A stretch of DNA of 64,000 bases from an uncultured Clostridium sp. GTDB lineage: Bacteria; Bacillota; Clostridia; UBA1212; UBA1255. The notes beneath the pieces are model-generated. The model ran no database searches, had not been told where the DNA came from, and saw nothing but the letters and a program-made list of their open reading frames with translations. Shown in pieces: positions 93 to 31,053 of this stretch. Positions within the stretch are counted from its first letter, which is position 1, and every line of letters begins with the position of its first letter. Made by a program: the position numbers and the translations under genes. The stretch covers positions 10,136-74,135 of the forward strand of contig UQSG01000001.1 in NCBI GenBank assembly GCA_900543695.1, read 5' to 3'.

Positions 93-782
93 CTACTGCC
101 CATAGTAAGCCTTCGGCCCATGTTTTCTCTGATAATGCTTATCCAGGACGTACTGCGCCATGCTGCTTTCCGGATTTAAGAGAAGCGTTTTCAGATCCAT
201 CTCAGCCACGCGCTCCAATACAACGGCGTGGTATACGGAATCCGCGGCATCCTTCCCCCAGGTGAACGGTCCGTGGTTGCGGACGACAATTCCCGGGATG
301 CTCATTGCATCATAGCCGCCGGACAGGATCGTTTCCACAATCACCTTTCCCGTGTTTGCCTCATAGGCCTCCGCCACTTCCTCGCGCTTCAGTTCCCGCG
401 TACACGGAATATCTCCATAAAATGCATCGGCGTGCGTCGTTCCCAGGGCAGCGATCGGGATCCCCGCCTGCGCGAAAGCCACCGCATTTGTAGAATGCGT
501 ATGGGTAACGCCGCCGATTTCCGGAAACGCCCTGTACAGCTCCAGATGTGTCGGCGTATCGGAAGAAGGCTTCCATTTTCCTTCCACCAGATTGCCCTCC
601 AGATCGATCACAGACATATCCTCTGGCGACATCGCTGCATAATCGACGCCGGACGGCTTAATGACGACAAGACCGCGCTCCCGGTCGATTTCGCTTACAT
701 TTCCCCACGTATAAATCACAACGCCTTTTGCAACTAAATCAAGATTCGCAGCCAAGACGCGCTCTTTTAATTCTTCTAACAA
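93..782 (-). CDS. araD: L-ribulose-5-phosphate 4-epimerase (class II aldolase/adducin family; AraD/SgbE/UlaF)
   Basis: 229 aa, near end-to-end similarity to E. coli AraD from memory: [51 protein letters not shown]. The His/Asp metal-site motifs are conserved. Confidence 0.9.
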
Positions 783-797
783 AATTCCTGCCCCCTT

Positions 798-1640
798 TTA
801 AGCGTGTGTTTCCGCAGACCGCTGCAGAATACCGGATAAAAACGCATAAGCCGCTCGAAGCTCACGCTCCGCATCCCGATCTGGCAGACACCAGAATTCC
901 GCCGTAAACCGCAGAACACCCAGATCAAATAAAGTATCCGCAATCACCGGAAAATCAACTTTTCCTTCTCCAAAAAACAAGTTGCGGTAGATTCCCGGCT
1001 TCGTTTCTTTCAAATGTGCAGAAAAAAGATGTCCGGCGCCGCGGCGCAGATCCCCGGGAACGTCTTCCACCGCGTTGCTGATGTTTCCGGTATCGGGATA
1101 GACGCCCAAATAAGGCGAATCAATTTCCGATACATATTCCATGGCCTTTTCAACGGTATTCATAAAATCATTTTCCATTGTTTCCAGGCCCAGAATGACG
1201 CCGCAGGAGGCGGCCATTCTGGCAGAGCGAAAAAGATTTTCCGTAAAATATTTTTTTGTTTCCGAATCGGAGGTCTCGTTGTAATAAACGTCATATCCCG
1301 CCAGCTGAATGATCCGGATGCCAAGATCATAGGCAAGCGCAATCGCGTTCTCCATAATCTGCATCCCCTTCTCGCGGATTTCCGGGAAATGGCTGCCGAT
1401 CGGATATTTTCTGTGCGCGCTCAGGCAAATGGAGCTGACGCACAGCTCCTGCCTGCTCCATGCCGCGAATTCTCTTCGCTGGGCCTTGCTCCATTCCAGG
1501 CGCAGCTGACGCTCCTGTGTTTCATCGATACTCATTTCGATAAAATCAAAGCCGAGCTGTCCGGCCGCACTCATTTTATGCGGCCAGCTCCAGGCCTCCG
1601 GCATTGCCTTTTCATAAAGTCCAAGCTGATATGGCTTCAT
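798..1640 (-). CDS. ulaE: L-ribulose-5-phosphate 3-epimerase (UlaE/SgbU, xylose-isomerase-like TIM barrel)
   Basis: 280 aa. Start LGLYEKAMP..GFDFIEMSIDETQER and IIQLAGYDVYY..PGIYRNLFFGEGKVDF closely parallel E. coli UlaE. It lies immediately upstream of araD and is co-oriented. Confidence 0.85.
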   Translation of the reverse strand: MKPYQLGLYEKAMPEAWSWPHKMSAAGQLGFDFIEMSIDETQERQLRLEWSKAQRREFAAWSRQELCVSSICLSAHRKYPIGSHFPEIREKGMQIMENAIALAYDLGIRIIQLAGYDVYYNETSDSETKKYFTENLFRSARMAASCGVILGLETMENDFMNTVEKAMEYVSEIDSPYLGVYPDTGNISNAVEDVPGDLRRGAGHLFSAHLKETKPGIYRNLFFGEGKVDFPVIADTLFDLGVLRFTAEFWCLPDRDAERELRAAYAFLSGILQRSAETHA

Positions 1641-3910
1641 ATCTGGCTCCCCTTAACATATACGAAATAACGATCCTGTATTTTGCGGACAGATCCCTTC
1701 GCGCCGCCGGCAATCTGAATTTCCGGCCTGTTGAAGGGCCCCATACGGATCCAATCTACAGCGGCGTCACCGTTCCAGTCCGCGGTATAGCTGCATTCGC
1801 CGTCAGAAGCGGTAATTTTGCCGGCTCCTGTGCCGCGCCGGTAAGAGAACGAGAACGGAACCACCGTACGGTCCGCTTTTGTAACGGTATATGCCTCCGT
1901 TTCCAGAGAGGTCCAGCCGTCCGGAAGACGCGGCACAAGACGGAGGCCCCGTTCCGGTGCAATATCGTCGATTCCCAGCAAAAGCCGCGCACATTTTACG
2001 ATTTCCGCCTGCTGAACTGCATTTCCAAGATCGCTGTTGCGATACCAGAACCGTTTCGACCCGTGGACGATCACGCCCTCCGGCACGATGTAGCTGTGAT
2101 CGGTATGATGATAGCAGAACATCGCCGCCGTTTCAATGCATTCCGTCATTTCCTCGTAGCGGTCCAGCATAATCGCCGACTGCGTCAGATAGCCCTGTCC
2201 GTAGCCCATCTGCCGTCCGGATTCCGGTGCATAAAATACTTCCTTCTGCGCCAGGAACGTACGGTTCAGCAAATCAAACCATTCCGGATGCTCATACGAC
2301 ATATCGTATCCAAACATATCGCTGTAAATCAGGAGGTCCACCATCCGCTTATATTCATACGTCCAGCAATCGTCCGTCGTATCTGTATATACCTTTCCGT
2401 AGCGCGGATGCTCCATCAGGAAATGTCTGCCGGCCGCCTCGCGGAGCGCTCCTGCAAAATCCGCAAGCTCAGAAGCATAATCCGCTTCACCAATTTCACG
2501 GAACAGCTCAGCGTATCCTAAAAGCGCAAAAGAAGAAATCAGATTGGAGAAAAGATCATAGCCGCCCGTAATCTGCGTGCTGGTCTCCGATTCTGAAAAT
2601 AAAATATCGGTAAAATTCGACTCCTTCGGATGCGCCTTCTGCCACAGGTAATAATCCGCGGCATCCTTCAGCTCCTTCCGGTGCTCCTGCAGCCACTGGC
2701 GATCCACGACGCCCTTCCGGAACAGAGTAAAGATAAACAGCATGACAGCCGCGTGTCCGTCGTTTTCCTTGCCTTCGTTAAATAAATCGTTTTCGTCCTT
2801 TGCAACCAGATTGGCCACGCGCTTCCAGTGCGGAATCGGGAAACGGACGGAAGGATAATACAGCAGCTTATGGAGGTAATCAGCCGCAGGCACCACGCGC
2901 TTAAAATAACCGAAATTGGTCAGCTCCATCAGCGTCCTTCCGATGTCGCGCGTCCAGACGTGGCCGCCGTAGCTGTCACTGTTTTCCTTAAAGGTTCCGA
3001 AGCCCAGATAGCAGCCAAAGTTGCACGTATACGGCGTGGAAGTATGCGAACGGCCATCGTCCTCAATTTTGCCGTGCGCCATATCCATAATGTTTGCACG
3101 GTAAACGTTCGTATAAACCTCCGCCATCGGCGCGCCGGAAAAAGTGACATCCGGTGCGTCGAAGCCTTCGATTTCTTTCTTTGCATCCGAAGCCGGCAGC
3201 TCGTCCCGGAACTGGTACAATCTGCGCGCCAAACGGTCAATATCCGCATAATAAGCTCTGCTTAAGAAAAAGTCCTGATCCACAAGCGTCCATTCCGGGC
3301 GCAGCTCACCGCCGGCCAGGAGGCCGGTTACGGCAGATACGGCTACGTTTGCACGCTTCGAGTCCTCCCGAAAAAGCATGATTTCCTTAATTTTCTTATC
3401 CGAACGGAGCCGGTATCCAAAAACCCATTTGGTGCATTTTTCCGCCGATTCCGAAGTATTTTCCATCAGCTTCATGGCAGCGTCCTTCAGCGCCTTCGCA
3501 TTCGGATCGGAGACGAAGGGCTCCTGATACGGGGCGTCAAATGCCATCAGCTGCTCTTCCTCTTTCGGACGATAGTACAAATTATAGTTCCACGCATTTA
3601 CGCCGAAGATCACGGAAATCAGATCCTCTGTACGGTCTTCAAATATCACGCGGATCCGCATGAGACGATCCCCCAGGAAAAGACGAATGGAATGATCATA
3701 CATTGCTTCGTTCTGCGCCCACCATTCCGAACAATAATCGGAATCGGTAGCCATTCCCAGGAAAAACAGGGCTTCACACGCTGCCGGGAACGCAAGCGTT
3801 TCGCGATCAATTTTGCGGACTACGCCGCGTTCGTTTCTCGAAACAGAAAACGGGATCCCACATACTTCCAGCGTTTCCGGTTTTTCAGTCTGCTGATATT
3901 GATAAAACAT
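1637..3910 (-). CDS. Large cytoplasmic glycoside-hydrolase-like protein, (alpha/alpha)6-barrel-like, family unassigned
   Basis: 757 aa with no signal peptide. Strong RBS AAGGAGGAAA-N5-ATG. ATGA overlap with the ulaE start indicates translational coupling. Motifs GHVWTRDIGRT, ENDGHAAVML and GQGYLTQSAIMLDRY are typical of six-hairpin glycosidases. Family not determinable by eye. Confidence 0.4.
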   Translation of the reverse strand: MFYQYQQTEKPETLEVCGIPFSVSRNERGVVRKIDRETLAFPAACEALFFLGMATDSDYCSEWWAQNEAMYDHSIRLFLGDRLMRIRVIFEDRTEDLISVIFGVNAWNYNLYYRPKEEEQLMAFDAPYQEPFVSDPNAKALKDAAMKLMENTSESAEKCTKWVFGYRLRSDKKIKEIMLFREDSKRANVAVSAVTGLLAGGELRPEWTLVDQDFFLSRAYYADIDRLARRLYQFRDELPASDAKKEIEGFDAPDVTFSGAPMAEVYTNVYRANIMDMAHGKIEDDGRSHTSTPYTCNFGCYLGFGTFKENSDSYGGHVWTRDIGRTLMELTNFGYFKRVVPAADYLHKLLYYPSVRFPIPHWKRVANLVAKDENDLFNEGKENDGHAAVMLFIFTLFRKGVVDRQWLQEHRKELKDAADYYLWQKAHPKESNFTDILFSESETSTQITGGYDLFSNLISSFALLGYAELFREIGEADYASELADFAGALREAAGRHFLMEHPRYGKVYTDTTDDCWTYEYKRMVDLLIYSDMFGYDMSYEHPEWFDLLNRTFLAQKEVFYAPESGRQMGYGQGYLTQSAIMLDRYEEMTECIETAAMFCYHHTDHSYIVPEGVIVHGSKRFWYRNSDLGNAVQQAEIVKCARLLLGIDDIAPERGLRLVPRLPDGWTSLETEAYTVTKADRTVVPFSFSYRRGTGAGKITASDGECSYTADWNGDAAVDWIRMGPFNRPEIQIAGGAKGSVRKIQDRYFVYVKGSQI

Positions 3911-3939
3911 AAGCTTTCCTCCTTATTCATTTTTATCGT

Positions 3940-6900
3940 TTATACATGTGCCGCCAGTGCAAAGATTCCGCCGGCTGCATCCGCCTCACTGGCGATGATT
4001 CGCAGCTCTTTCATTTCTTTAAATTCACCGAAGTCCAATTCCAGCAGGTTGAACACCGTGCTGCAGCACTCAATCGCGCGGTTTTTGCACCAGAGGCTCC
4101 GCTGCGGATAGGCCGGAGGCTGAGCCTGCCGGTAATCCGTTTCTCCCGGCGCGACGGGCATCGCAGGAATCTCGCTTCGGTCCGTATCCGGCACATATGT
4201 TGCAAACCCCGCAATCACCTCATTTCCGAAGCCCATATCGGCAGTGCCGGGATAATAAACATCATAGAGATATATGGGACGAAAATACGAGTCTTTTTTC
4301 ACGGCCTCCGCCTCTGCGCGGAAAATTCTGCTGAATACGTCATGGTTGTCGATAAAAGCGCTGAAAAGCACGTAAAGCTTTTTCATTTTCCGGCCTTCAA
4401 GCGAAATCGTGACAACTGGATGCTTCTCTTTGCTGAATGGAAGGAACCCGTTCGGATTCAGAGAAAGCGGGACGGAGGGCAAAATGGGAATGGCTCCGTA
4501 CTGCTCCCAAAGTCCTTTCATAAAGGAGTCCGGGCCCTGCATCATATGGCCATGCGAAGGATGCAGACCGATTTCCCTCCAGTACGCGCTCGGCTTGCAC
4601 GCCTCGTCCGGGATCGGGATCGGGACGACCTGCGCATGCGCCGGCGCGGCTTCGATCTCCAGCGGATAATGGATCGGGCCCTGCAAAGTGGCTTTGTTCT
4701 TACCGGGAGAAAAAAGAATCTCACCCGAGCGGATTGGGAAAACGATCGTTCCGTTTTGCTTCGGCAGAACGGTTCCCTCCGCAGTCAGAAGCTGTCTGCC
4801 AATCAGGAGCTTCCATCCGCCTGTAAGCGCCTTTTCAGACTGATTCCAGACTTCCACTAAAACGGAATTTTGCCCTGCCGCAGCGGCAGCGCGGCAATAT
4901 ACCGCGGGTAAAGAAACCAGCGCGCAGGGATGCAGGAATTCCCTGCCTCCAGCCCGCAGGCGCAGAAAGAGCATTCTTCTGGCAAAATTGAGAATTCCGA
5001 ACCATCCGTAGCATTCGTATTTTTCCAGCAAATCGCGGCGAACAGTTCCCGTGAGTTTATTATTCTGCCATTCCAGCGAGGAGAAAACACCGCAGCGGTC
5101 TTCCACGCCGATCAGCTCCGCATCGCCTTCTATCCGCAGAGAAAAAGAATCTCCGCAGGCCGCCGTCATCTCATAGGTGCAGCGGATCTGAATGGGTTCC
5201 CAAGAGCAGGATACCGTAAGATTTCTTCCGGAGCCTGCTTCAAATTCTACGCTGCTCCAGCCGCAGTGCAGCTCCGGCTCAAGCGTCCATTTTTTCCCTT
5301 CCGCTTCGGCCGTAACGCGGAAAGACGGCGGGCAAAGAACGCGTATAATCTTACGCGTGTCATCCTCTATTTGCAGCTGCATCGAAAAGCCGTTCGTTTT
5401 GGACGTGTAGCTGATTTTGACGCCAGGCAGCTGCAGAGAAGCCTCCGGCCAGTCCTCCGGAATACACGGCGCAATTACCGTTTTATTCTCCGGCATATCG
5501 CGCTTCAGGCCGAAAATCGACTCGATAACAGCCTGAGAAAATACCGCTGCCGAAGGAGAAAAATAAGCAAATCTTTTTTCGTTCGCCGTTTCCGGCCAGG
5601 ATCCGCGCTGATAGCTGCCGCACACTCTGCGCGCAATAAAGGACAGCGGACGCACGGCTTCTTTTTTCATGCCGACAGAGGCGTACGCAGCAGAAGCAAA
5701 CGGCTGCATGTCCGAGCCGCACTGCATTCCCCACGTGGGGACGCCCCAATACGCATGATCGCCAAAGTGATTGGACTGATAAATTTCGCCCTCCGGACCA
5801 GTCATTCGATGCAGCAGGTGATCCAGCGCAGAAACTTTATCAGGATCGTCAATTTCATCGTATAGGATGGGATAAGTAATGCCGTGATACGTTGTTTCCA
5901 GACGAAGCTCTCCGGAAATATCTTCGTACCATGCCGGTCTGCCGAGATCCTTCAGCCATAGGGTTCGATACCATTCCGCCCTGCATCTGCCCGCTTCGGC
6001 GGAATAAAACTCTGCCTCCTCCGGCTTTCCCAGGATCGATTTGATGTAGGACATGATTTCCATCATTCTCACGCCTTCGATTCCGGTTGCCGCACCCTTT
6101 CCCGGGGTGCTTTCGAAATCCTCCTGATTTCCGATCTGCGTTCCCCAGCCGATTACGCCGCTGCCAACGGGATCGTATTCCGCAAAGCTCTGCCATAAAG
6201 CTTTTTCCAGAAAAGGCTCCGCTTCCTCGGCAAAGGCGAGGTCTCCTGTCATTTTAATATAATGCTCTACTTCCCGGAAAAAAAACTGATTATTTCCGCC
6301 CCAGTCACGGCGCGCCGAACCATCGGGGCACAGATCAGGGATCGCGCCGCTTTCAAATACGCGCTGCATCTGGCTGCGGAGACATTCCCGCACTCTGTCG
6401 AATCGGCCATTCCATTCTTCTGCCGCAGTATGCTCCATATGCCACATCGTAGGCCAGTGCTGAATGCTTTCAATCCAGCCGTAAGGACGAAGCCATGCAT
6501 ATTCCACATTCAGCAGCGCATGTCCGAATGCTTCGTTCAGCGCAGCATCCGGAGTATGAATCCGCCACTGTGCCAGAAGATCATCATAATAGCGGATGAC
6601 GCGTTCTTCCTCTTTTACCGGATCGCATCCGGCCAGCTCGACAGCACGCTCTTCCTGTTCTGAAAATCCAACGACGGCAAACAAATCCGTTCCCGTTCCG
6701 TTTGCCACTGCATACGTGCCGTACCTTCCGAAATCGCCCTCTAAAGACATAATCTTGAGATCGGAAAAGTTCCCCTTTACCGCCGTGACGAGCGGACGCT
6801 CTTCGCGCCGGATCAGGACCGTATTGCCGGACAGCTCAGCCGAGCCATGCTCGCAGTCGATTTTTTCTCCGGCCATGCTCTGATTGGGAGAGAAATGCAT

Positions 6901-7326
6901 AAAAGCTATATTTCCCGCGCCGAATTTCAGCCAGAATTTTCTCGGAGCATCACTGTGGATATGAAGCAGCGCCGCGCCCTCCCAGAGCATGTTTTCTCTT
7001 CCAAAATGGAGAGGATACCAAGACGCCTGAAAAGAAGTTCCGTCCGGAAGCTTCACTTCGCTTCTCAATCCGCCCGGGATATTGTCTGCGGTCGTTTCCT
7101 CGCTGCATTCCTGATAAGTAAGCCAGCGCGGCTCGCTTTCACCGACACCAATTACAAATTTTGCCAACAATACGTGTTCCGCACCGCGCGCCTGTGTATG
7201 ATCATATGTCATTACGGCGCCGTTCGGATACGCTTGCCTGAGAAAGACCAGACACTGCTGATAGGCGCATGCCCGCTCGTCCAGCAGCTCCAGTGTGGGG
7301 GAAATGTCGCTTTCGTTTTGTCTCAT
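3940..7326 (-). CDS. Very large (1128 aa) cytoplasmic glycoside-hydrolase/phosphorylase-like protein, family unassigned
   Basis: RBS AAAGGAGAA-N6-ATG. Central (alpha/alpha)6-like segment WLRPYGWIESIQHWPTMWHMEHTAAEEWNG with beta-sandwich flanking regions. No signal peptide. Divergent from the AraC regulator gene. Confidence 0.35.
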   Translation of the reverse strand: MRQNESDISPTLELLDERACAYQQCLVFLRQAYPNGAVMTYDHTQARGAEHVLLAKFVIGVGESEPRWLTYQECSEETTADNIPGGLRSEVKLPDGTSFQASWYPLHFGRENMLWEGAALLHIHSDAPRKFWLKFGAGNIAFMHFSPNQSMAGEKIDCEHGSAELSGNTVLIRREERPLVTAVKGNFSDLKIMSLEGDFGRYGTYAVANGTGTDLFAVVGFSEQEERAVELAGCDPVKEEERVIRYYDDLLAQWRIHTPDAALNEAFGHALLNVEYAWLRPYGWIESIQHWPTMWHMEHTAAEEWNGRFDRVRECLRSQMQRVFESGAIPDLCPDGSARRDWGGNNQFFFREVEHYIKMTGDLAFAEEAEPFLEKALWQSFAEYDPVGSGVIGWGTQIGNQEDFESTPGKGAATGIEGVRMMEIMSYIKSILGKPEEAEFYSAEAGRCRAEWYRTLWLKDLGRPAWYEDISGELRLETTYHGITYPILYDEIDDPDKVSALDHLLHRMTGPEGEIYQSNHFGDHAYWGVPTWGMQCGSDMQPFASAAYASVGMKKEAVRPLSFIARRVCGSYQRGSWPETANEKRFAYFSPSAAVFSQAVIESIFGLKRDMPENKTVIAPCIPEDWPEASLQLPGVKISYTSKTNGFSMQLQIEDDTRKIIRVLCPPSFRVTAEAEGKKWTLEPELHCGWSSVEFEAGSGRNLTVSCSWEPIQIRCTYEMTAACGDSFSLRIEGDAELIGVEDRCGVFSSLEWQNNKLTGTVRRDLLEKYECYGWFGILNFARRMLFLRLRAGGREFLHPCALVSLPAVYCRAAAAAGQNSVLVEVWNQSEKALTGGWKLLIGRQLLTAEGTVLPKQNGTIVFPIRSGEILFSPGKNKATLQGPIHYPLEIEAAPAHAQVVPIPIPDEACKPSAYWREIGLHPSHGHMMQGPDSFMKGLWEQYGAIPILPSVPLSLNPNGFLPFSKEKHPVVTISLEGRKMKKLYVLFSAFIDNHDVFSRIFRAEAEAVKKDSYFRPIYLYDVYYPGTADMGFGNEVIAGFATYVPDTDRSEIPAMPVAPGETDYRQAQPPAYPQRSLWCKNRAIECCSTVFNLLELDFGEFKEMKELRIIASEADAAGGIFALAAHV

Positions 7327-7492
7327 CGTTCATTCTCCTTTGCATTCTACTTTCCGCAGGATTCATTTGCCCTCATTATATCGGGCGCCTGCTGAAGGTA
7401 AAATTGCACAAAACATATTATTGATGGACAAAAGCGCAAAACTGTGCTAAAATCTGAAAAAGAAAGAACAAGAAAAAGGATGAGTTTATTTT

Positions 7493-8305
7493 ATGCCGAA
7501 AATAAAATATGTTGGCCGGTTATATGAAAATACGTACCGCATCAATCTTCACACGCATGATTTCTGGGAAATTGTACGCTATACCAAAGGAAGCGGTCTG
7601 GTAGAAATTGACGGAGAAATCATTCCTTTTCAGGAAAACGATATTTTTGCGATCCCGCCGAATGTCCCGCATACGGACTATTCCGATACGGGCTTTCAGA
7701 ATTATCATTACACCTTCAATGATGACGACTTCAACAGACTCTCTTATATGAAGTTTCCGGATACGGAGAACAACGATTTTCTGACGATCATGAAGCAGCT
7801 CTATCACGAATATCATTTGAAGCGCAAAAATTATCAAAACATTATAGACAGCCTCTATACGGTTTTGTTTCACTATATTCTGGCATTGTCCGAAGAAGCG
7901 GAAAGCAATCAATATGTAGCGCTTGTCATCAATGAAATCATCAGCAATATTTCTAATCCGGAATATGAAATTCAGCAGACACTGCAAAAAATTCCGTTAA
8001 CGGAAGACTATTTTAGAAAATTATTTTTCCAGGAGACCGGAAAGACGCCGCTCCAGTATCTCACGCAGAAGCGAATCTCTTTTGCAAAGCAGCTGCTCTG
8101 TCTTCAGGCCCATTCCGGGATTTCCATTCAGGAAATTGCCTGGCGGTCCGGATTTGCAGACAATTATTATTTTTCCCGTGTTTTTAAAAAGGTTACGGGC
8201 GTCAGCCCCAAATATTGGGCGGAGTACGACAAACAAAAAGCAGAGGAAGATAATGAGCTTCCCAAGCGCAATTATCTTCCTCCTGAGACAAAGGATTATG
8301 AATAA
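7493..8305 (+). CDS. AraC/XylS-family transcriptional regulator (N-terminal cupin sensor, C-terminal HTH)
   Basis: 270 aa. C-terminal AraC signature ..QEIAWRSGFADNYYFSRVFKKVTGVSPKYW. N-terminal beta-rich cupin region. Sits in the sugar locus divergent to the 1128-aa GH. Confidence 0.85.
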   Translation: MPKIKYVGRLYENTYRINLHTHDFWEIVRYTKGSGLVEIDGEIIPFQENDIFAIPPNVPHTDYSDTGFQNYHYTFNDDDFNRLSYMKFPDTENNDFLTIMKQLYHEYHLKRKNYQNIIDSLYTVLFHYILALSEEAESNQYVALVINEIISNISNPEYEIQQTLQKIPLTEDYFRKLFFQETGKTPLQYLTQKRISFAKQLLCLQAHSGISIQEIAWRSGFADNYYFSRVFKKVTGVSPKYWAEYDKQKAEEDNELPKRNYLPPETKDYE

Positions 8306-8340
8306 AGCGGTCTTAATGGATCGCTTTATTTCTTTTTCTT
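8304..8340 (+). terminator. Intrinsic terminator after the AraC-family gene
   Basis: Hairpin AAAGCGGTC-ttaatg-GATCGCTTT followed by ATTTCTTTTTCTT, 1 nt after the stop codon. Confidence 0.55.
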
Positions 8341-9489
8341 GCTTCGTACGATCACAACGACGAAGATGATTACAACAACTGCAATCGCGCCGATCAGCAC
8401 ATAAACCAGCCAGCCGTTTCCGCTGTCCGCATCCTCTGTGCTGCCATTCGTCGTCGGTACGGGCGTCTTTTCCGCAGCAGGCGTTCCGTCTGTTCCTGCA
8501 GTCGGCTCCGTCTCCGACGTAGGCTGTTCGGGAGCCGGCGTGCTTTCTTCCGCCTTCTCATAGACAGCCAGGTTATCAAGGCCAAAATTATTAGCGCGGT
8601 TGATAAAAGCAAACAGGCCTGTTACCGGTACCACGGCTTCATCGACGGTAGCCACAACCGCACCCTCAGCGTCTTTGATTTCCACCTTGCGATAGGAATC
8701 GCCGGAGAAGAGCTCCATTCCTGCCAGAGAAGTATCCCAGTAATTTTCATTCCAATGCGTCGTCACCTCGTCCGGTTCGGACATCGTAATCGTGCAGACG
8801 AGATTATCTTCTACGTATACGGCAATCTCGCCGTTCTCCTCCTGCACGCAGACAGACGTAAATTCCGTGAAATTAACGCCCTCGGGCATCTGGAACTGGT
8901 AGGAAACGGTGTATGCGCCGAGCATCCTGTCCGCCGCGTTTTCTACGACGCCGGTCGTCGCCTCGCCGTTAATCGGTCCCGCCGTGCCGCCATTTTTGTT
9001 TGTGTGTACGCCTACCTCCAGGATATTATCAAAAAAGTAAATAAACACGCCGGCAGCGCCCAGGAAGGACGTCAGATCCTTATCCTCATTGTCCGGCTCG
9101 ATCACCATGCCAACGGAATCGGCGGGAACGTGCAGCGCCAACGCGGATTTATAGGCATTTTCCGCCAAATTTCCGGGGATTGCCGTTTTAATGTCGAACT
9201 GCACACGGTAGTCAATCACCTCGTACATGGAATACACATAAGCCCCAGAAGGGAACATGCCGTTGTAATACGTGTTGTCGCCTTCTGTTACGACATTTTC
9301 CGCCTTTACATCGTAAGTGTTAAAATACGTGTAGAAATCGTCGGGAAGCACGCCGTCATAGCCCTCAAAATCGGTTACATATGCTTCGTTAAAGCTTTCC
9401 GGGAGCTCCGGAACAGCTGCTAGGGCCGGCAAAACGCCTGCAAAAGCCATGACTGCCGCCAAAAGACTTGCTATTATTTTTCGTTTCAT
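8326..9489 (-). CDS. Secreted cell-surface protein: signal peptide, beta-rich domain, Pro/Thr/Glu linker, C-terminal transmembrane anchor with KKKK tail
   Basis: 387 aa. N-terminal MKRKIIASLLAAVMAFAGVLPALAA signal peptide. Linker ..STPAPEQPTSETEPTAGTDGTPAAEKTPVPTT. C-terminal WLVYVLIGAIAVVVIIFVVVIVRSKKKK. RBS GAGAGGAG. Confidence 0.6.
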   Translation of the reverse strand: MKRKIIASLLAAVMAFAGVLPALAAVPELPESFNEAYVTDFEGYDGVLPDDFYTYFNTYDVKAENVVTEGDNTYYNGMFPSGAYVYSMYEVIDYRVQFDIKTAIPGNLAENAYKSALALHVPADSVGMVIEPDNEDKDLTSFLGAAGVFIYFFDNILEVGVHTNKNGGTAGPINGEATTGVVENAADRMLGAYTVSYQFQMPEGVNFTEFTSVCVQEENGEIAVYVEDNLVCTITMSEPDEVTTHWNENYWDTSLAGMELFSGDSYRKVEIKDAEGAVVATVDEAVVPVTGLFAFINRANNFGLDNLAVYEKAEESTPAPEQPTSETEPTAGTDGTPAAEKTPVPTTNGSTEDADSGNGWLVYVLIGAIAVVVIIFVVVIVRSKKKK

Positions 9490-9508: not shown

Positions 9509-11029
9509 TTACGATTCCGACGGAATCGTATATTCTGTTACGGTACTTTCTCCGAATGTGTTGCGCGTCTGAATATAGCAGACATTTCCGTCTCTTTCTT
9601 CGGGGAGCTCGACACCGTCATTAATATTGTAATAGACCCATTCCCCCTGCGTCTCCGCATCAAAGGAAATCCGGTATTCGGTTGGATAGCCATCCAGGGA
9701 AAGGAAAAGCGCATCGTCGTCTGAAGAAAGGACCTCAGGGGCAGGCGGCGCCTCCTGCTTCCAGTAATTCAGCTTATACAGATTTGTTTTGACATTGTCA
9801 AACACAAGAAAACCGAAATCCACATTTGGTTCAATATGGGTGCTGCCATACAGCGACACTCCCTCCTGCGGCTGCTCCTTCCAGGCCATCGCATAATTAA
9901 AGCGGTTGATCAGAAGCGCTTTGGGAGACAGCTCCGCCACACCGCGGAGCGTACGTTCAAACGTCGTCTGACCGTTTACAATGTGATTCAGCTCATCCCA
10001 GTTCTCGCCGCCTTTATGGAGCGAGGCCCAGGCGATCATTTGCTCCACGCTTCCATCCGCAGCGTCTTTGTGGAAAATACGGTACATGCCTTCCCCGGCG
10101 TCAGGATCCTCTTCAGATTCTACAAAGAACCAAAGCGGCACATCGCCGGAAATGGACTTGCTTCCATCCTTCTGCTCTTCCGTATATGGAGACAAATAGC
10201 CGTTGCTGAAGCGAATATTGAAGCGCTCATCATCAAATATTTCAGTCCCCTCCGCTACTTTTTTCTGAAGCTCTGAATCAATAAAAATGATGAGAAACGG
10301 CTTGGAAGCGCGATCGGTCCCGTCCTGCAGACGATACCAGGCATCAGGATACTGTTCGTACAGCGTATAAACATCCGTCAGCACTTCATTCAGCGCATCG
10401 TAATTTTCCCCACTGAGCCGCACTGTAATGTAAATCTTGGGCGATTCGAAGCCAAGCGACGCCGATGCCTCCTTTAGAAGCACCTCCGTGTTTGCATAGA
10501 CTCCGTACGTATATTTATACCAGTCCTGTCCCGGCGTTTCCAGCCGGTAAGAAGTATAGTTGGTCCAGTCTACCGCCACGCCGTTGCAGCCGAGCGCTGA
10601 CATCCAATACAAATGCTGTCTGGCCGTTTCCGGATCTCTTTGATCATATAGGCCCATCAGCGGCGTTGTCGTCCGGTAATTGCCGCTCACCTGGACTGTG
10701 TCGGGATGCTGCGGGTTCAGCGGCCACCACCCTCTTTGCGGACGGCCGTTCGTCGTCGGTCCCGTGTCGATATCATACCACATAATCATATCCATGGTTC
10801 TTCTGCCCTCTTCTCTTGCGCTGAGCGTCTGCGGCTTTTCCACCGGTTTCGGTTCAGCAGCTCCTCTGCCGACATAGAAATAGATTCCAACCGCACACAG
10901 CACGGCCGCGCAAACAACCGCTGTTAAAGTGCAGCCCTTTGCCGAAAGCCTTTTCTTTGCATACAGTACAAACAGAAGAAGCGCGGCGATAACCGCCAGG
11001 AAAACAAGAAGCAATATTTTTACAAGCAT
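9509..11029 (-). CDS. N-terminally membrane-anchored extracytoplasmic protein, possible glycan-active enzyme
   Basis: 506 aa. Two N-terminal hydrophobic helices (LLLVFLAVIAALLLFVLYA; LTAVVCAAVLCAVGIYFYV) followed by a large soluble domain with an aromatic-rich segment HLYWMSALGCNGVAVDWTNYTSY. Function is inferred only from context. Confidence 0.35.
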   Translation of the reverse strand: MLVKILLLVFLAVIAALLLFVLYAKKRLSAKGCTLTAVVCAAVLCAVGIYFYVGRGAAEPKPVEKPQTLSAREEGRRTMDMIMWYDIDTGPTTNGRPQRGWWPLNPQHPDTVQVSGNYRTTTPLMGLYDQRDPETARQHLYWMSALGCNGVAVDWTNYTSYRLETPGQDWYKYTYGVYANTEVLLKEASASLGFESPKIYITVRLSGENYDALNEVLTDVYTLYEQYPDAWYRLQDGTDRASKPFLIIFIDSELQKKVAEGTEIFDDERFNIRFSNGYLSPYTEEQKDGSKSISGDVPLWFFVESEEDPDAGEGMYRIFHKDAADGSVEQMIAWASLHKGGENWDELNHIVNGQTTFERTLRGVAELSPKALLINRFNYAMAWKEQPQEGVSLYGSTHIEPNVDFGFLVFDNVKTNLYKLNYWKQEAPPAPEVLSSDDDALFLSLDGYPTEYRISFDAETQGEWVYYNINDGVELPEERDGNVCYIQTRNTFGESTVTEYTIPSES

Positions 11030-11052: not shown

Positions 11053-12174
11053 TCATGCATTGTTTTTTCTGCGCCGGATCACAATCCCAGCCGTCGCGCC
11101 AATGAGAAACGCCGCTGAAATGCCGAGCAGAAGTCCGGAATCACCGGTTGACGGGTTCGGCTTCTCCGGATCGGGATTCTGGTCCGGGTTCTGATCATCC
11201 GGATCGACAGGAATCTCAGGATCAACCGGATCCTCCGCCTCCGCCGTCTTACTGAGCTTCAGCGCATCCAGACGCGCACAGAATCTTCCGGAGCCATTGT
11301 CAACGCTAGAAATCGTGATTTTATGAATTCCTGCGGCCAGCTCTATCTCGCCCAGCTCCTGCTCTTCAAGCGTCCAGCCGCCGTCATGGTACAGATTGAC
11401 CGGCTCGCCAATCTCCTGACCATCGATCGCAATCTGAACGGAGCAGCTGTCATTGTTTAAGATGTAGGCAAGAGAAACGTTGTATTTTCCGGACTGCGGA
11501 ACAACGAGAGACACCGTTTCCAGAGAACGTCCAGCTTCATAGAAGTCCACGTTGACTATGGCGTCAACCGGCAGCGCTTCATGCGTGTAATTGCTTTCCA
11601 GATGGAATTCATCAGATTTGGTATATGCGTTTCCTTCAAATTCAAAGACAATTTCATCCGAGGGCGTCAGCTCCTCCAGGGTAAGATAATCCAGCAGCGC
11701 GCAGTAATACGCCGACTCCTGACTTGTAAAGGTCAGCGTATGCGTGCCTGCGGACAAAGTCATCAGGCCGACCGTTTTTTTACCAGCCTCCCAGCCGGCG
11801 CCGTTGTTCAGATTGATCTGACTGTCAATTACAGTGCCGTCAATTTTCATTTCTAAAATTCCGCCGTCCTGGTTCAATACGTATCCTAAAGTAATGAGAT
11901 AAATAGCTTCCTTTTCTACAGTGAACGTAGTTTCCAGAGCGTTTCCTGCCTCATAAAAGTTTACGTTCGCCGCACTTTCTACCGGGAGCGCCTCATGCAC
12001 AAAAGGCACCTCGAGAAAAAATTCTCCAGTTTGTGTCCATTCCTGATCTTCCAGCTCGAAGGTGATCTGCTCCTCGGCCGCACCTGCCGGAAGCAGGCTG
12101 CAAGCAAAAAGCGCCGCAACCACAAAGAAAATTAGGAAGCTAGCTTTACTTTTTCTTAATCCATGTTTTACCAT
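11053..12174 (-). CDS. Secreted surface protein with two tandem ~125-aa carbohydrate-binding-like beta-sandwich repeats, Pro/Asp linker and C-terminal transmembrane anchor
   Basis: Start reassigned to the internal Met (MVKHGLRKSKASFLIFFVVAALFAC), which follows RBS AAGGAGGA-N9-ATG. Repeat 1 ITFELEDQEW..LDYLTLEEL and repeat 2 IVFEFEGNAY..LDALKLSK are clearly homologous. Linker DPVDPEIPVDPDDQNPDQNPDPEKPNP. C-terminal LLLGISAAFLIGATAGIVIRRRKNNA. Confidence 0.55.
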   Translation of the reverse strand: MVKHGLRKSKASFLIFFVVAALFACSLLPAGAAEEQITFELEDQEWTQTGEFFLEVPFVHEALPVESAANVNFYEAGNALETTFTVEKEAIYLITLGYVLNQDGGILEMKIDGTVIDSQINLNNGAGWEAGKKTVGLMTLSAGTHTLTFTSQESAYYCALLDYLTLEELTPSDEIVFEFEGNAYTKSDEFHLESNYTHEALPVDAIVNVDFYEAGRSLETVSLVVPQSGKYNVSLAYILNNDSCSVQIAIDGQEIGEPVNLYHDGGWTLEEQELGEIELAAGIHKITISSVDNGSGRFCARLDALKLSKTAEAEDPVDPEIPVDPDDQNPDQNPDPEKPNPSTGDSGLLLGISAAFLIGATAGIVIRRRKNNA

Positions 12175-12338
12175 TTTAAAAATCCTCCTTTTCTTTTGAC
12201 AACTGTTCTGCCTAAAAAGATACCCCAAACATACATTCTTTTAAATAGACATTATCGTTTTTTTGTTGGACAATTCATAACACATTTTTTTGTAAAAAAT
12301 GTTTGGCGATAAGAAAATCTGGATATTTTTGTAAAAAA

Positions 12339-12373
12339 GAAGATAATTTCAATTTTAATTTGAAATTATCTTC
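12339..12373. repeat. Perfect 14-bp AT-rich inverted repeat (GAAGATAATTTCAA-N7-TTGAAATTATCTTC) between the kinase and surface-protein genes
   Basis: Read directly. On the minus strand it is followed by a U-run, so it could be a weak terminator after the kinase gene, or an operator. Flanked by two TTTTTGTAAAAAA direct repeats in an AT-rich ~190-bp spacer. Confidence 0.5.
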
Positions 12374-12421: not shown

Positions 12422-13885
12422 TCAGCGTTCCAGCATTTCCTGATACAGAGCATATTTTTCTCTGTAGACAGGAACCTTATGCGCGTCCGGAGAAAAGGTC
12501 TTCCGAATATGAACCATTTCTCTGGCAGCCGTATGATAATCCGGATATGCGCCGCAGCAAATGGAAGCAGCGATCGCAGCGCCCATTGCGCCGAGCTCTT
12601 TTCCGTCTACGACCTGCAGGGGCGTCTCAAGAACGTCGGCAAACAGCTGCATCCACACATCTGAATTTGCCGCGCCGCCCGCAATTCGAATATAAGGCGG
12701 CGTCTTTCTGTACTTCAGCAGTCTTTCAACATGCTGCTTGTGGGAAAATGCGACGCCCTCATATACCGCCCGCAGAAGATGCTCCGTACCATGACCGCTG
12801 TGCAGTCCTACCCACGCAGCATGCTTCCGGTTCCGTGCGTTGCTGCCGTATAAAAACGGGAAAAACAGAAGCGAAGAGGATTCCGGCGCTACAGAGGCCA
12901 CCATATTGTCGATTTCCCCGTAAGAGGGCTTATCCTTCCCAAACAATATGCCGCGTACCCAGTCCAGATTCCCTGCGGAAGTCGGACTGCTTTCTTCGAT
13001 AAGGTAATATCCCGGCATACAGAAAAGCGAATGATTCACGCCCTCCTCCGGCGCAACCGGTTCCTGCGATATATATTCGTTGATGCTCCACGTTCCGGTA
13101 ATAACGCAGATTGGAACGGAATCAGAGACGTCCATGGCGATCGCGCAGGCATCGATATCGAACATGCCTCCGCACACCGGAATTCCCTCGGGAAGCCCCG
13201 TACAGGCCGCTGCTTCTTTCGTTACGCAGCCACAGTGCGCTGAGGAATCCGCTAACGGCGGCAGACATTCCGCAATCTCCGGGATTCCGTAAAGTCTCAG
13301 CAATTCCGGATCATACGCTTTCTTCCGGAGGTTCAGAAGTCCCGTTCCGGAGGAATCCGTATATTCAGCGAAAGGACGGCCTGTCAGCATAAAGCGGATA
13401 TAATCCTTTGCTTCAAACACCCATTGAATGTTCTGATATACCTCCGGCTGATTCCGCTTCAGCCAGGCAAGGAGCGCAGTCGGCTGACATGCCAGAGTGG
13501 ATTGAAGATTCAGCAGCCCCGCCTGCGCCGTCGTTCCGTTCTGCTCCCATTCCCGAACGAGCTCGGCCGCCCGCTGGTCTGTCGAAGCAATTGCCGGCGC
13601 GCACGGTTTGCCGTCCTTTCCCCAGAGATACAGTCCTTTCCCATGACCGGTACATCCCACTGCGGCAATTTTCTCCGGAGCAATGCCGGAAGCAGATATC
13701 GCCTTTTGTATGGCAGCCGTCGTCTTCTCCCACAGAAAAATCATATCCCGTTCGTGATAGCCTTCCCGCACCACTGTAACGGGAGTTTGTTCAGAGGCAG
13801 CGCTCATCTGCTGCCCGCTGGAGGAAAATACGGCGGCCTTGATATTGGTTCCGCCATTGTCAATCCCTACAAAATATCGTTCCAT
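12422..13885 (-). CDS. FGGY-family carbohydrate kinase (pentulose kinase; L-xylulokinase/ribulokinase-like)
   Basis: 487 aa. N-terminal GIDNGGTNIKAAVF actin-fold ATPase motif. C-terminal FGGY motif IRIAGGAANSDVWMQLFADVLETP. RBS GAGGAG-N8-ATG. Sits between the isomerase-like gene and the surface-protein genes. Confidence 0.75.
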   Translation of the reverse strand: MERYFVGIDNGGTNIKAAVFSSSGQQMSAASEQTPVTVVREGYHERDMIFLWEKTTAAIQKAISASGIAPEKIAAVGCTGHGKGLYLWGKDGKPCAPAIASTDQRAAELVREWEQNGTTAQAGLLNLQSTLACQPTALLAWLKRNQPEVYQNIQWVFEAKDYIRFMLTGRPFAEYTDSSGTGLLNLRKKAYDPELLRLYGIPEIAECLPPLADSSAHCGCVTKEAAACTGLPEGIPVCGGMFDIDACAIAMDVSDSVPICVITGTWSINEYISQEPVAPEEGVNHSLFCMPGYYLIEESSPTSAGNLDWVRGILFGKDKPSYGEIDNMVASVAPESSSLLFFPFLYGSNARNRKHAAWVGLHSGHGTEHLLRAVYEGVAFSHKQHVERLLKYRKTPPYIRIAGGAANSDVWMQLFADVLETPLQVVDGKELGAMGAAIAASICCGAYPDYHTAAREMVHIRKTFSPDAHKVPVYREKYALYQEMLER

Positions 13886-13906: not shown

Positions 13907-15100
13907 TTATGCCTGCGCCTCGGCAGCAGGATAATGCTTCAGCATAACAAGCGGTTCATATGCGCTGGCATTTTCGACGAGCACGCCGTTCGAAGCGGCA
14001 GGATAAGAAACAAAAAATTCATCTTCGCTTTTCTGTCCAAAGCGCAGCATGGTCGCCGCAGCACAGCGCTGCCCGGCCAGCTTGCCGTAGCCCTGCACAA
14101 CGATGCAGCCGTATGCGGTGTCATCCGTGATCCGTGCAGAGCAGCCTGGATATACAGTCAGCTCTTTTGCCGCAATGTACTCGTTTCCGTATACAATCTG
14201 CTTTACCATATAGCTTTCCGTTTGTTCCAAAATAATGGGCGGACGGAAATAGTGTTCTTTATATTGCGGATCGATGTTCTTTTCCCAGTCCATCATTTCA
14301 ATAACATAGTCCGGATCTCCCCAATGCTCCGGCGGACAGTTTTCATAGAGGAAGCTGTCGTCATAGATTTCGCTGTCAGTAATATTTTCGAAGACCGCAT
14401 TTACGTCCGAATTCCACTGCGGTTCATAAGTAAGATAGGAGCCGGGAGCATGCAGCACTCCGGGCGGCGTATACCAGCCGGTTCCCAATTCGATCCGATA
14501 CGCTCTGGAAAGCTCTGTGATCCGCAGATCCCGCTTTTGATAGTCCCTCAGACGTTCCCGCAGATCATCCTTGGTGGTATCCGCAGTAAATCCAAAATAA
14601 GTGTGCGGAAATTTTCCGGGATAGTTATTATATTGCGGCGGATAATAATACGCCTCCGGTTTTCCCAGCTTTCCGACGCGCGCTGCAGCTTCAAAGCCCA
14701 GATGCATATGATGGAACAGAGGTCCCTCGTAATCAAAAAATTTGGAGTACATCGGCCACGTCTGGTGCCGTCTGTAACAGTTCTCTCCGATCATTTCTTC
14801 CCGAAGCGTATCGACAAATGCCTTCAGCGTGATTCTTTCCCCGCTGCAGCCATCCAGGTTTACATAGCTCATACCTTCGTCCGGCGCGGCGTCGGGGCCG
14901 TTCATTGCTGTAATTACAGAAGAAAACCAGCGTTCCTTAATGGAACCGCGTTTTGTGCCAAGCGCATAATAATCATCGGGATGCAGCCGCAGACGTCTGC
15001 CCGCCGTTCCGAAGCGGCGCGGTACGAATGTCGGGATAAGCGGAAGAACACCGCCGCGATCCTGAAAAAATGAATTTATAATTTCTTTTTCTGAACTCAT
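13907..15100 (-). CDS. Type-I phosphomannose-isomerase-like cupin protein (putative sugar aldose-ketose isomerase)
   Basis: 397 aa. Segments KFFDYEGPLFHHMHLGFE, EAYYYP and GTGWYTPPGVLHAPGS..EPQWNSDVNAVF parallel the Zn-binding and cupin motifs of class I PMI (KLLD..SIQVHPDD; ECWYII; FYYVPSGTLHA..ETQQNSDATYRV) as recalled. RBS AAAGGAAGAG. Confidence 0.45.
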   Translation of the reverse strand: MSSEKEIINSFFQDRGGVLPLIPTFVPRRFGTAGRRLRLHPDDYYALGTKRGSIKERWFSSVITAMNGPDAAPDEGMSYVNLDGCSGERITLKAFVDTLREEMIGENCYRRHQTWPMYSKFFDYEGPLFHHMHLGFEAAARVGKLGKPEAYYYPPQYNNYPGKFPHTYFGFTADTTKDDLRERLRDYQKRDLRITELSRAYRIELGTGWYTPPGVLHAPGSYLTYEPQWNSDVNAVFENITDSEIYDDSFLYENCPPEHWGDPDYVIEMMDWEKNIDPQYKEHYFRPPIILEQTESYMVKQIVYGNEYIAAKELTVYPGCSARITDDTAYGCIVVQGYGKLAGQRCAAATMLRFGQKSEDEFFVSYPAASNGVLVENASAYEPLVMLKHYPAAEAQA

Positions 15101-15840: not shown

Positions 15841-16566
15841 TTATAAAACCTTAGAAAGAAAGTCCTTCGTCCGTGCGTGCTGCGGATTTCCAAACAGCTC
15901 CTCCGGCGTGTTTTGTTCGATGATCACGCCTTCATCCATAAACAGGACGCGGTTTGCCACCTCTTTTGCAAATCCCATCTCGTGTGTTACCACAATCATC
16001 GTCATGCCTTCATCCGCCAGCTCGTGCATCAGAGACAGCACCTCGCCTACCATTTCCGGATCCAGCGCGCTCGTCGGTTCGTCAAACAGCATAACCTCCG
16101 GATTCATGGCAAGCGCCCGCACGATCGCAACACGCTGCTTCTGCCCTCCGGAAATCATGGAGGGATACGCGTTGACCTTGTCCGCAAGCCCGATCCGTTT
16201 CAGCAGCCGGTTCGCATTTTCCGCCGCCTCTTCCTTTGTTTGCAGCTTCAGCTTTACCGGAGCAAAAGAAATATTTTCCAGAATTGTAAAATGAGGAAAT
16301 AAATTAAAATGCTGAAAAACCATCCCCATGCTGCAGCGGATTTTATTAATATCCACATTTGGTGCCGTAATATCCACGCCTTTAAAAAGCACCTTTCCGC
16401 TCGTGGGCGTTTCCAGCAGGTTCAGGCAGCGCAGGAACGTGCTCTTTCCCGAGCCGGAAGGGCCTATCACGACAACCTTTTCATTTTTTTGAATTTTCTC
16501 GCTGATACCGTTTAATACGATTTTTTTGCCGTCAAACGTCTTTACGAGATTTTCAGTTTCGATCAC
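15841..16566 (-). CDS. Polar amino acid-type ABC transporter ATP-binding protein (GlnQ/HisP-like)
   Basis: 241 aa. Walker [10 protein letters not shown]. Signature [15 protein letters not shown]. Walker [13 protein letters not shown]-loop VVTHEM. Start overlaps the permease stop by 14 nt. Confidence 0.9.
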
Positions 16567-29637: not shown

Positions 29638-29654
29638 GAAAGAGGTGTGTTTCC

Positions 29655-31022: not shown

Positions 31023-31053
31023 TAATAGATTATAAAGGAAAGAGGTAACGCAT

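Follow-up and report, generated by a model that had tools for sequence, protein, structure and literature searches.

Two six-hairpin proteins without a family assignment, encoded beside an L-xylulose-type module in an uncultured Clostridium, are candidate glycoside hydrolases

Gene Structure and Cellular Location of the 757-aa and 1128-aa Proteins

The DNA considered here is a stretch of 64,000 nucleotides (nt) from an uncultured Clostridium sp. (GenBank assembly GCA_900543695.1, contig UQSG01000001.1, positions 10,136 to 74,135 of the forward strand), and this whole stretch is called the window below. Near its left end, two large open reading frames (ORFs) encode proteins of 757 and 1128 amino acids (aa), called 757 and 1128 here, upstream of two pentose-phosphate epimerase genes (Table 1). 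Both proteins are predicted to have the architecture of six-hairpin glycoside hydrolases (GHs), neither matched a family in the libraries searched, and the cluster in which they lie recurs in other bacteria. We consider it rather probable that they work as hydrolases in an L-xylulose-type pathway.

The two ORFs are real, conserved genes, because full-length homologues fall into many clusters (133 for 757 and 59 for 1128, at 90% identity). A library-wide profile search with the 757 family returned 501 clusters at 50% identity with E ≤ 1e-3, of which 190 had E ≤ 1e-30, and every name given by the sources to the homologues of either protein was “hypothetical” or “uncharacterised.” The window proteins are 93–98% identical to those on a contig of Candidatus Egerieisoma faecipullorum, a metagenome-assembled genome of Clostridia from the chicken gut, and this organism or a close relative of it is the probable source of the window. 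The gap between the 1128 and 757 genes is 29 nt and contains AGGAGG, and the stop codon of the 757 gene overlaps the start of the 3-epimerase gene in ATGA. An initial interpretation made from the letters of the window alone (the sequence-only reading) had claimed translational coupling of the 757 gene with the epimerase genes through this overlap. The same 4-nt overlap joins the 757 homologue and the 3-epimerase gene of a 79%-identical relative (locus L062), in agreement with that claim.

The sequence-only reading had also described both proteins as cytoplasmic and without signal peptides. Both proteins lack a hydrophobic N-terminus and any membrane segment (maximum Kyte-Doolittle 19-residue scores of 1.20 and 1.32), so the lack of signal peptides was upheld and the window proteins are predicted to be cytoplasmic. 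As a trait of the families, however, the description did not stand. Homologues of both proteins from Bacteroidota and Ignavibacteria bear signal peptides, which the Clostridia proteins lack; clear Sec signals were seen in the ∼800-aa 757-like proteins of Bacteroidota and Ignavibacteria and in the ∼1150-aa 1128-like proteins of Bacteroidales. Similarity to the window proteins begins right behind the signal peptide in these secreted homologues, and the mature N-terminus of the Bacteroidales 1128 homologues aligns at residue ∼15 of the window protein. The cytoplasmic location thus appears to be specific to the lineage and not to either family.

Table 1. Positions of the genes and other features discussed, numbered from the first letter of the window
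Position	Strand	Feature	Basis
93..782	-	L-ribulose-5-phosphate 4-epimerase, AraD/SgbE/UlaF-type; last gene of its operon	NCBIfam, SgbE comparison
798..1640	-	3-epimerase, UlaE/SgbU-type (L-xylulose-5-phosphate/L-ribulose-5-phosphate)	NCBIfam, PDB, SgbU comparison
1637..3910	-	757	ORF with ATG start
3940..7326	-	1128	ORF with ATG start
7375..7402	-	Promoter-like site TTTACC-16-TATAAT, upstream of the 1128 gene	Consensus scan
7493..8305	+	AraC-family regulator, divergent from the 1128-757-epimerase operon	Pfam AraC_binding + HTH_18
8326..9489	-	387-aa secreted protein: signal peptide, unannotated domain, Pro/Thr-rich linker, C-terminal membrane anchor	Translation, hydropathy
9509..11029	-	U506, 506 aa: N-terminal membrane anchor and unannotated extracellular domain	Hydropathy 3.25 at residue 5
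11053..12228	-	Cell-surface protein: signal peptide, CBM6/CBM35-like region, LPXTG/NPXTG-type anchor	Pfam, NCBIfam, translation
12373..12339	-	Terminator-like hairpin after the U397 and kinase genes	Consensus scan
12422..13885	-	FGGY kinase, LyxK-like (L-xylulose/3-keto-L-gulonate kinase)	Pfam FGGY_N + FGGY_C
13907..15100	-	U397, 397-aa unannotated protein	No Pfam/NCBIfam match
15841..20958	-	Three overlapping ORFs: GH2-like, GlnP/cystine-type permease, GlnQ-like ATPase	
26751..27668	-	ORF (240–305 aa)	No Pfam or NCBIfam match
27913..33525	+	2-oxoacid dehydrogenase complex	
36061..36783	-	ORF (240–305 aa)	No Pfam or NCBIfam match
43638..44372	-	ORF (240–305 aa)	No Pfam match
56911..59439	-	Typical GH78 rhamnosidase	

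Fold and Family Assignment

Family status was judged with Pfam-A and NCBIfam, which are partial substitutes for the dbCAN/CAZy hidden Markov models (HMMs), and with sequence and fold searches of the PDB. Neither 757 nor 1128 gave any match in Pfam-A, NCBIfam, or the PDB sequences. AlphaFold2 models based on the family alignments were confident, with predicted local distance difference test (pLDDT) scores of 93.6 for 757 and 91.5 for 1128. The 757 model consists of a beta-sandwich (residues 1–258), an (alpha/alpha)6 barrel of twelve helices (261–645), and a second beta-sandwich (656–757), and the 1128 model consists of a beta-supersandwich (∼1–222), a twelve-helix (alpha/alpha)6 barrel (∼236–604), and four or five beta domains C-terminal to the barrel. 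Both models therefore show the barrel with flanking beta-sandwiches that marks the six-hairpin superfamily, and the (alpha/alpha)6-barrel-like character suspected from the translations was supported by structure prediction and the fold search. The best structural matches belong to GH15, GH78, GH65, GH94, GH125, and GH116, at identities of about 10–13% (up to 16% for GH15); with the 1128 model, Foldseek ranked GH94 cellobiose/chitobiose phosphorylases first (E 5e-20, 12% identity, TM score 0.59 on the target). Since equally good matches were obtained to many families and none exceeded ∼16% identity, these similarities indicate a shared fold, not family membership.

Weak similarities among family members point in the same direction. 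When 50 members of the 757 family were compared with Pfam, Glyco_hydro_125 was matched by 14 (best E 0.001, all below the gathering threshold), Bac_rhamnosid6H by four (E 0.026 or worse), and Glyco_hydro_15 by one (E 0.076), and other weak matches among family members were to GtaA_6_Hairpin, MGH1-like, and GDE_C domains. The GH125, GtaA_6_Hairpin, MGH1-like, Bac_rhamnosid6H, and GDE_C matches are all to six-hairpin GH domains and therefore support the fold. In the PDB, the family profiles gave insignificant or sub-threshold matches, such as that to GH125-like structures with E 0.004, over 57 residues only. Long members of the 757 family are fused to modules of carbohydrate-binding type (three F5/8-type-C domains with fn3, two DUF642 domains, or GH43_C2/DUF1349), which supports a role in carbohydrate metabolism. 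The profile-profile comparison of 757 with 1128 by hhalign (E 9e-5, probability 59%) covered the second half of the barrel, towards the C-terminus, together with the beta-sandwich behind it, which suggests that the two are at best distant paralogues.

Several known families were considered and rejected. For GH78, hhalign comparisons with the rhamnosidase of the window itself, a typical GH78 enzyme encoded ∼50 kb from the locus, gave probabilities of 0.06% and 0.8%, and the window proteins had no Pfam match; the position that we take to be that of the GH78 general-acid Glu is occupied in 1128 by A338, a non-conserved Ala. The window proteins also lack a match to Glyco_hydro_15 (PF00723), with structural identities of 11–16% to GH15 enzymes, and do not reach the gathering score of Glyco_hydro_125 (PF06824). 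GH127/GH146 (DUF1680) was rejected in the same way, as Beta-AFase-like_GH127_cat (PF07944) was matched neither by the window proteins nor by any of the 50 members. Membership of GH94 or GH65 is opposed by the absence of a Pfam match, the identity of ∼12%, the signal peptides of the Bacteroidales homologues, and an invariant Glu in the loop that holds the catalytic base in hydrolases. Full-text literature searching found no description matching this cluster. As far as we can tell from Pfam-A, NCBIfam, the PDB sequences and folds, and the literature, 757 and 1128 represent two unclassified six-hairpin families, as the failure to recognize a familiar family by eye had suggested, and their fold and probable chemistry are of an already-known kind.

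The L-Xylulose-Type Module

The sequence-only reading had placed the 757 gene beside a pentose module made of the two epimerase genes. These genes are present as described. The 3-epimerase belongs to the UlaE/SgbU group (NF009689, 315.9 bits against a cut-off of 200; TIGR00542, 275.1 against 272.15), matches UlaE in the PDB (3cqh) with E 1.9e-67, and is 42% identical to Escherichia coli SgbU. The 4-epimerase is a member of the AraD/SgbE/UlaF group (NF006047, 360.3 bits against a cut-off of 257; NF009003, 351.4 against 331), stays under the equivalog cut-off of TIGR00760 (340.7 against 389.1), and shares 55% identity with E. coli SgbE along its full length. Upstream, and not joined to the module in the earlier interpretation, lie the genes of an FGGY kinase and of U397. 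The kinase is 36% identical to E. coli LyxK over its full length (E 1e-110, 325 bits); its best FGGY matches among the PDB sequences, including E. coli xylulokinase, scored only ∼125–140 bits, and it fell under every NCBIfam equivalog cut-off. Neither an SgbH-type decarboxylase nor AraA was found in the window’s cluster. An ordinary L-arabinose (AraBAD) module was considered and ruled out by the LyxK-like kinase, the presence of the 3-epimerase, and the lack of AraA. The pentose module is therefore of a LyxK/SgbU/SgbE-like type, and by homology its route would be L-xylulose to L-xylulose-5-phosphate to L-ribulose-5-phosphate to D-xylulose-5-phosphate.

No protein of the locus is more conserved than U397, which keeps 61–80% identity between Clostridia and Bacteroidales. 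In a database search, all of the 8000 candidates that were scored proved to be homologues (i.e., there are at least 8000), the names given by sources were all “hypothetical protein,” and neither Pfam nor NCBIfam gave a match. The protein contains the motifs FHHMHL, GKPE, GVLHAPG, and EPQWNSD, which resemble those of type-I phosphomannose isomerases (PMIs). H131, H133, E149, H217, and EPQWNSD (NSD) are invariant, and we take them to match the PMI motifs. Ten of the 11 weak, sub-threshold matches of the U397 profile in the PDB were type-I mannose-6-phosphate isomerases (best E 0.055). The hhalign comparison with E. coli ManA gave E 0.0012 with a probability of only 19%, and the aligned segment ends at LSIQVHP, which holds two of the zinc ligands of ManA. 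U397 is thus a probable aldose-ketose isomerase that would supply the kinase, which we offer as a lead and not as a result. The triad of U397, SgbU-like 3-epimerase, and LyxK-like kinase recurs even in a locus without the two large proteins (L067).

Conservation of the Locus in Other Bacteria

To describe the gene context, we used a sample of 20 close loci from species-representative genomes, in which the 757 homologue was ≥ 50% identical and the available flanks spanned at least 8 kb. The 1128 partner and an AraC-family regulator were each found in 13 of these 20 loci, U397 in 12, the 3-epimerase and the 4-epimerase in nine each, and the LyxK-like kinase and U506 in seven each. Across related loci, the gene content persists while the gene order changes. 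A gene for a GH106 alpha-L-rhamnosidase is convergent to the 4-epimerase gene in the two relatives closest to the window (L006, 4599–6743, minus strand; L062, 15182–17245, minus strand), at a place just past the left edge of the window; L006 is a near-identical relative. Genes for GH78 enzymes and for RhaM were found in other loci bearing the family, and a separate, genuine GH127 gene was found in L003.

In loci of the Bacteroidales type, the 757 homologues are ∼40–45% identical and the 1128 homologues 26–31% identical to the window proteins, and the set of 757-like protein, 1128-like protein, U397, 3-epimerase, and kinase is kept. To this set, the loci L003, L064, L068, and L069 (Bacteroidales and related metagenomic sequences) add a ribose-type ATP-binding cassette (ABC) importer (Peripla_BP_1, BPD_transp_2, and a double ABC_tran). 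No SusC/SusD pair was found in the stretches examined of these four loci, which seems unusual for a Bacteroidales locus. Also added are DUF6259 proteins and one to three URO-D-like (uroporphyrinogen-decarboxylase/MtaA-type) proteins, with RhaM in two loci. In a metagenomic protein of 1131 aa (P0313), an N-terminal URO-D-like domain is fused to a 757-like domain, and because of this fusion we consider the recurrent URO-D neighbors to be functionally tied to the 757 family. Separate URO-D-like and DUF6259 genes recur in L003, L064, L066, L068, and L069; demethylation or decarboxylation of a sugar are possible roles for them.

The locus was found in bacteria from the chicken gut, rumen, horse, human gut, and soil or sediment, in at least two phyla (Clostridia and Bacteroidales). 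The conservation of synteny across phyla agrees with the functional tie of 757 to the epimerase module that the sequence-only reading had proposed.

Candidate Catalytic Residues

Inverting enzymes of the GH15 type carry their general acid in the barrel loop between alpha5 and alpha6 and their base in that between alpha11 and alpha12. For 757 and 1128, the loop positions of conserved acidic residues were read from the secondary structure. In an alignment of the 757 family reaching down to 20–28% identity, the invariant acidic residues are E382, D583, and E611, and E442 and D384 are ≥ 90% conserved. Of these, E442, in an SESE motif, belongs to the alpha5-alpha6 loop, and E611, in a VPEG motif, to the alpha11-alpha12 loop; the conserved E382 and D384 are part of an ENDGH motif. 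In the 1128 family, N400-Q401-E402-D403 and P578-E579 are invariant in comparison with Bacteroidales homologues of 26–28% identity; E402 and D403 (NQEDFE) lie in the alpha5-alpha6 loop and E579 (WPET) in the alpha11-alpha12 loop. The profile-profile comparison pairs the “PE” motif of 757 with that of 1128. Because these conserved acids sit in the loops that hold the acid and base in GH15-type enzymes, we propose a candidate catalytic pair in each family.

Transcription Units and Other Genes of the Window

Transcription units and the promoter were read from consensus scans, which suggest three units on the minus strand. Unit (i) would comprise the U397 and kinase genes and be followed by the terminator-like hairpin, unit (ii) the cell-surface genes between the kinase and AraC-family genes, and unit (iii) the operon of 1128, 757, 3-epimerase, and 4-epimerase from 7326 down to 93. 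The promoter-like site lies within a 166-nt divergent intergenic region common to the 1128 and AraC-family genes. Among the products of unit (ii), the cell-surface protein has one stretch matched by Pfam CBM_6 (E 2.8e-9) and an LPXTG anchor in NCBIfam, and a second copy of the carbohydrate-binding module (CBM) was recognized by eye in the translation. U506 gave no match in Pfam, NCBIfam, or the PDB, the last including a profile search, and may act outside the cell, either as a depolymerase or in binding. The 387-aa protein gave no Pfam or NCBIfam match. In total, five proteins of the locus have no family assignment.

The remaining genes were noted in passing. The three overlapping ORFs upstream of U397 were not syntenic with the locus elsewhere. 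The first encodes a divergent GH2-like protein (779 aa) far under all NCBIfam cut-offs; the second encodes 689 aa, of which the C-terminal 220 aa are a permease of the GlnP/cystine type and the N-terminal part may reflect a mis-called start or a fused domain; and the third encodes a GlnQ-like ATPase. The ABC genes in this region (15841–18622) were considered as the transporter of the locus and ruled out, as they are of the polar amino-acid type (GlnQ/GlnP-like) and not syntenic elsewhere. The 2-oxoacid dehydrogenase complex is unrelated to the six-hairpin pair. It comprises an E3, an E2 (which has two lipoyl-type stretches), and one protein of 823 aa in which an E1 domain and a transketolase-like domain (E1 alpha- and beta-type) are joined; a DeoR regulator follows. 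Three further minus-strand ORFs of 240–305 aa had no Pfam match, and the first two had no NCBIfam match either.

Proposed Pathway and Alternative Explanations

Taken together, we regard it as fairly probable that 757 and 1128 represent two distantly related, unclassified six-hairpin GH families that work in an L-xylulose-type pathway. The two proteins are tied to the module because of the ATGA overlap, the co-occurrence in the 20 close loci, and the presence of the same set in Bacteroidales at 26–45% identity. In the pathway that we propose, the cell-surface proteins (the CBM6 protein, U506, and the 387-aa protein) would bind, and perhaps fragment, an external glycan, and an oligosaccharide or glycoside would be imported by a transporter encoded outside the window’s cluster. 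1128 and 757 would then hydrolyze the imported substrate in succession, in the cytoplasm of the Clostridia and in the periplasm of diderm bacteria. The mechanism would be inverting and GH15-like, with E442 of 757 and E402/D403 of 1128 as the acid and the glutamates E611 and E579, respectively, as the base. One of the freed aldoses would be isomerized by U397 and phosphorylated by the LyxK-like kinase, after which the SgbU/UlaE-like 3-epimerase and the SgbE/AraD-like 4-epimerase would yield D-xylulose-5-phosphate; the AraC-family regulator would control the 1128-757-sgbU-sgbE operon.

L-Lyxose and L-xylose would both give L-xylulose, and formally the sugar should be an L-xylulose-yielding aldose, for example a pentose of L-lyxo or L-xylo configuration or a modified form of one. 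The GH106, GH78, RhaM, GH127, and URO-D-like neighbors hint at a complex, rhamnose-containing, and possibly modified glycan of plant or microbial origin, without thereby identifying the sugar. A more specific version of the proposal is that these are two founding GH families for a glycoside catabolized by an undescribed route (U397, LyxK-like, SgbU-like, and SgbE-like enzymes, ending in D-xylulose-5-phosphate) and that the sugar is a rare or modified one of L-xylo or L-lyxo configuration, such as a methylated sugar or a derivative of the rhamnogalacturonan II (RG-II) type. If so, the locus would represent a widespread “dark” sugar pathway in anaerobes of the gut, rumen, and soil. The recurrent URO-D-like (one of them fused), DUF6259, rhamnosidase, RhaM, and GH127 neighbors support this version, which we put forward tentatively and consider possible but doubtful.

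Several observations weigh against the proposed pathway. The 1128 partner was not within the available flanks in seven of the 20 close loci, and 757 homologues under ∼40% identity have none of the module neighbors; all window neighbors are missing around the Akkermansiaceae homologues (35–36%), and the contexts of distant homologues in a metagenome contig (45%) and in Hydrogenedentota (42%) were uninformative. The window’s own cluster has no sugar transporter, and the ABC genes close to it belong to the polar amino-acid type. To our knowledge, there is no abundant natural glycoside or other source of an L-xylulose-yielding aldose, and the product is chemically awkward. In addition, hydrolase activity is something that we infer for both families, the L-pentoside specificity raised in the sequence-only reading is likewise a prediction, the catalytic residues were assigned by loop position and conservation, and the isomerase assignment of U397 comes from weak, sub-threshold similarity.

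The families might already be defined in CAZy while being outside Pfam, NCBIfam, and the PDB, for example as a recent GH family for rhamnosides, beta-L-arabinofuranosides, or RG-II sugars, so that the lack of an assignment would be an artefact of the libraries. The libraries that we compared were Pfam-A and NCBIfam, as partial substitutes for the CAZy HMMs, and the PDB; CAZy founds families on single characterized sequences, perhaps without a structure; and rhamnose-related genes (GH106, GH78, and RhaM) recur nearby, as does GH127 in L003. We nevertheless consider this explanation unlikely, as the names given to homologues are all “hypothetical” or “uncharacterised,” the literature yielded nothing matching the cluster, and the hhalign probabilities against the GH78 enzyme of the window were 0.06% and 0.8%.

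The chemistry itself could also be different. There is a slim chance that one or both proteins, and especially 1128, are glycoside phosphorylases of the GH94/GH65 type that make a sugar-1-phosphate: GH94 enzymes are the top Foldseek matches of 1128, the protein is cytoplasmic in Clostridia, and several invariant His and Arg residues of its barrel could bind phosphate. However, the Bacteroidales 1128 homologues have Sec signal peptides and we know of no periplasmic phosphorylases, the loop that holds the base in hydrolases with this fold has an invariant Glu, no phosphomutase or sugar-1-phosphate enzyme was found in any of the loci examined, and the identity to GH94 is only 12%. The signal peptides and the adjacent monosaccharide-type ABC importer in the Bacteroidales-type loci therefore favor hydrolases that free a monosaccharide over phosphorylases. 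The two proteins might also be non-hydrolytic six-hairpin enzymes, for example lyases, epimerases or isomerases, or hydratases of the GH88/GH105 type that act on unsaturated sugars, with U397 acting like KduI on the keto-sugar set free. By its motifs, U397 resembles PMI-type (cupin-fold) proteins, KduI has the cupin fold, and the unusual nature of the expected aldose leaves room for a non-canonical product. We regard this as improbable, as none of the loci showed a gene for a polysaccharide lyase, and the downstream enzymes are close to LyxK, SgbU, and SgbE and not to those of the KduD/KdgK/KdgA route.

If the proposed hydrolytic pathway is correct, two GH families would be added and the substrate of a conserved, almost entirely unannotated catabolic locus would be identified. 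Because the locus is spread over many habitats and at least two phyla, naming the sugar would close a gap in what is known of the use of complex glycans, from plants or microbes, by anaerobes. LyxK/SgbU/SgbE-type modules would, in addition, gain a physiological role outside the enterobacteria.

Comparison With Known Enzymes and Pathways

Among the enzymes with the same fold, bacterial glucoamylase and glucodextranase of GH15 (PDB 1lf6 and 1ulv) are 11–16% identical to the window proteins, whose gene context is not one of alpha-glucan metabolism. The GH78 alpha-L-rhamnosidases (PDB 3cih, 3w5n, 2okx, and 6gsz) are characterized by a DCPxR(D/E)ERxGWxGD motif with the general-acid Glu, and the window proteins have no Bac_rhamnosid6H (PF17389) match above threshold. 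The GH94 and GH65 phosphorylases (PDB 8ho7, 1v7v, 2cqs, and 1h54) bind phosphate in the loop instead of having a base there, whereas the window families keep the loop Glu; the identity is ∼12%, and the 1128 homologues of Bacteroidales are predicted to be periplasmic. Unlike the window proteins, the GH125 exo-alpha-1,6-mannosidases (PDB 3qpf, 2p0v, and 3p2c) are single-domain proteins of ∼430 aa without flanking beta-sandwiches.

The catabolic module most resembles the E. coli yiaK-S operon for L-xylulose/2,3-diketo-L-gulonate (lyxK-sgbH-sgbU-sgbE). Identity is 36% between the window’s kinase and LyxK, 42% between its 3-epimerase and SgbU, and 55% between its 4-epimerase and SgbE, and in both systems the epimerase genes stand side by side and follow the same order. 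In contrast to yiaK-S, the locus lacks the SgbH decarboxylase, the YiaK reductase, and the tripartite ATP-independent periplasmic (TRAP) transporter, and adds the PMI-like U397, the two six-hairpin proteins, and the cell-surface carbohydrate-binding proteins. Because its gene content differs in this way, the entry substrate of the window’s pathway would be a glycoside-derived sugar and not diketogulonate.

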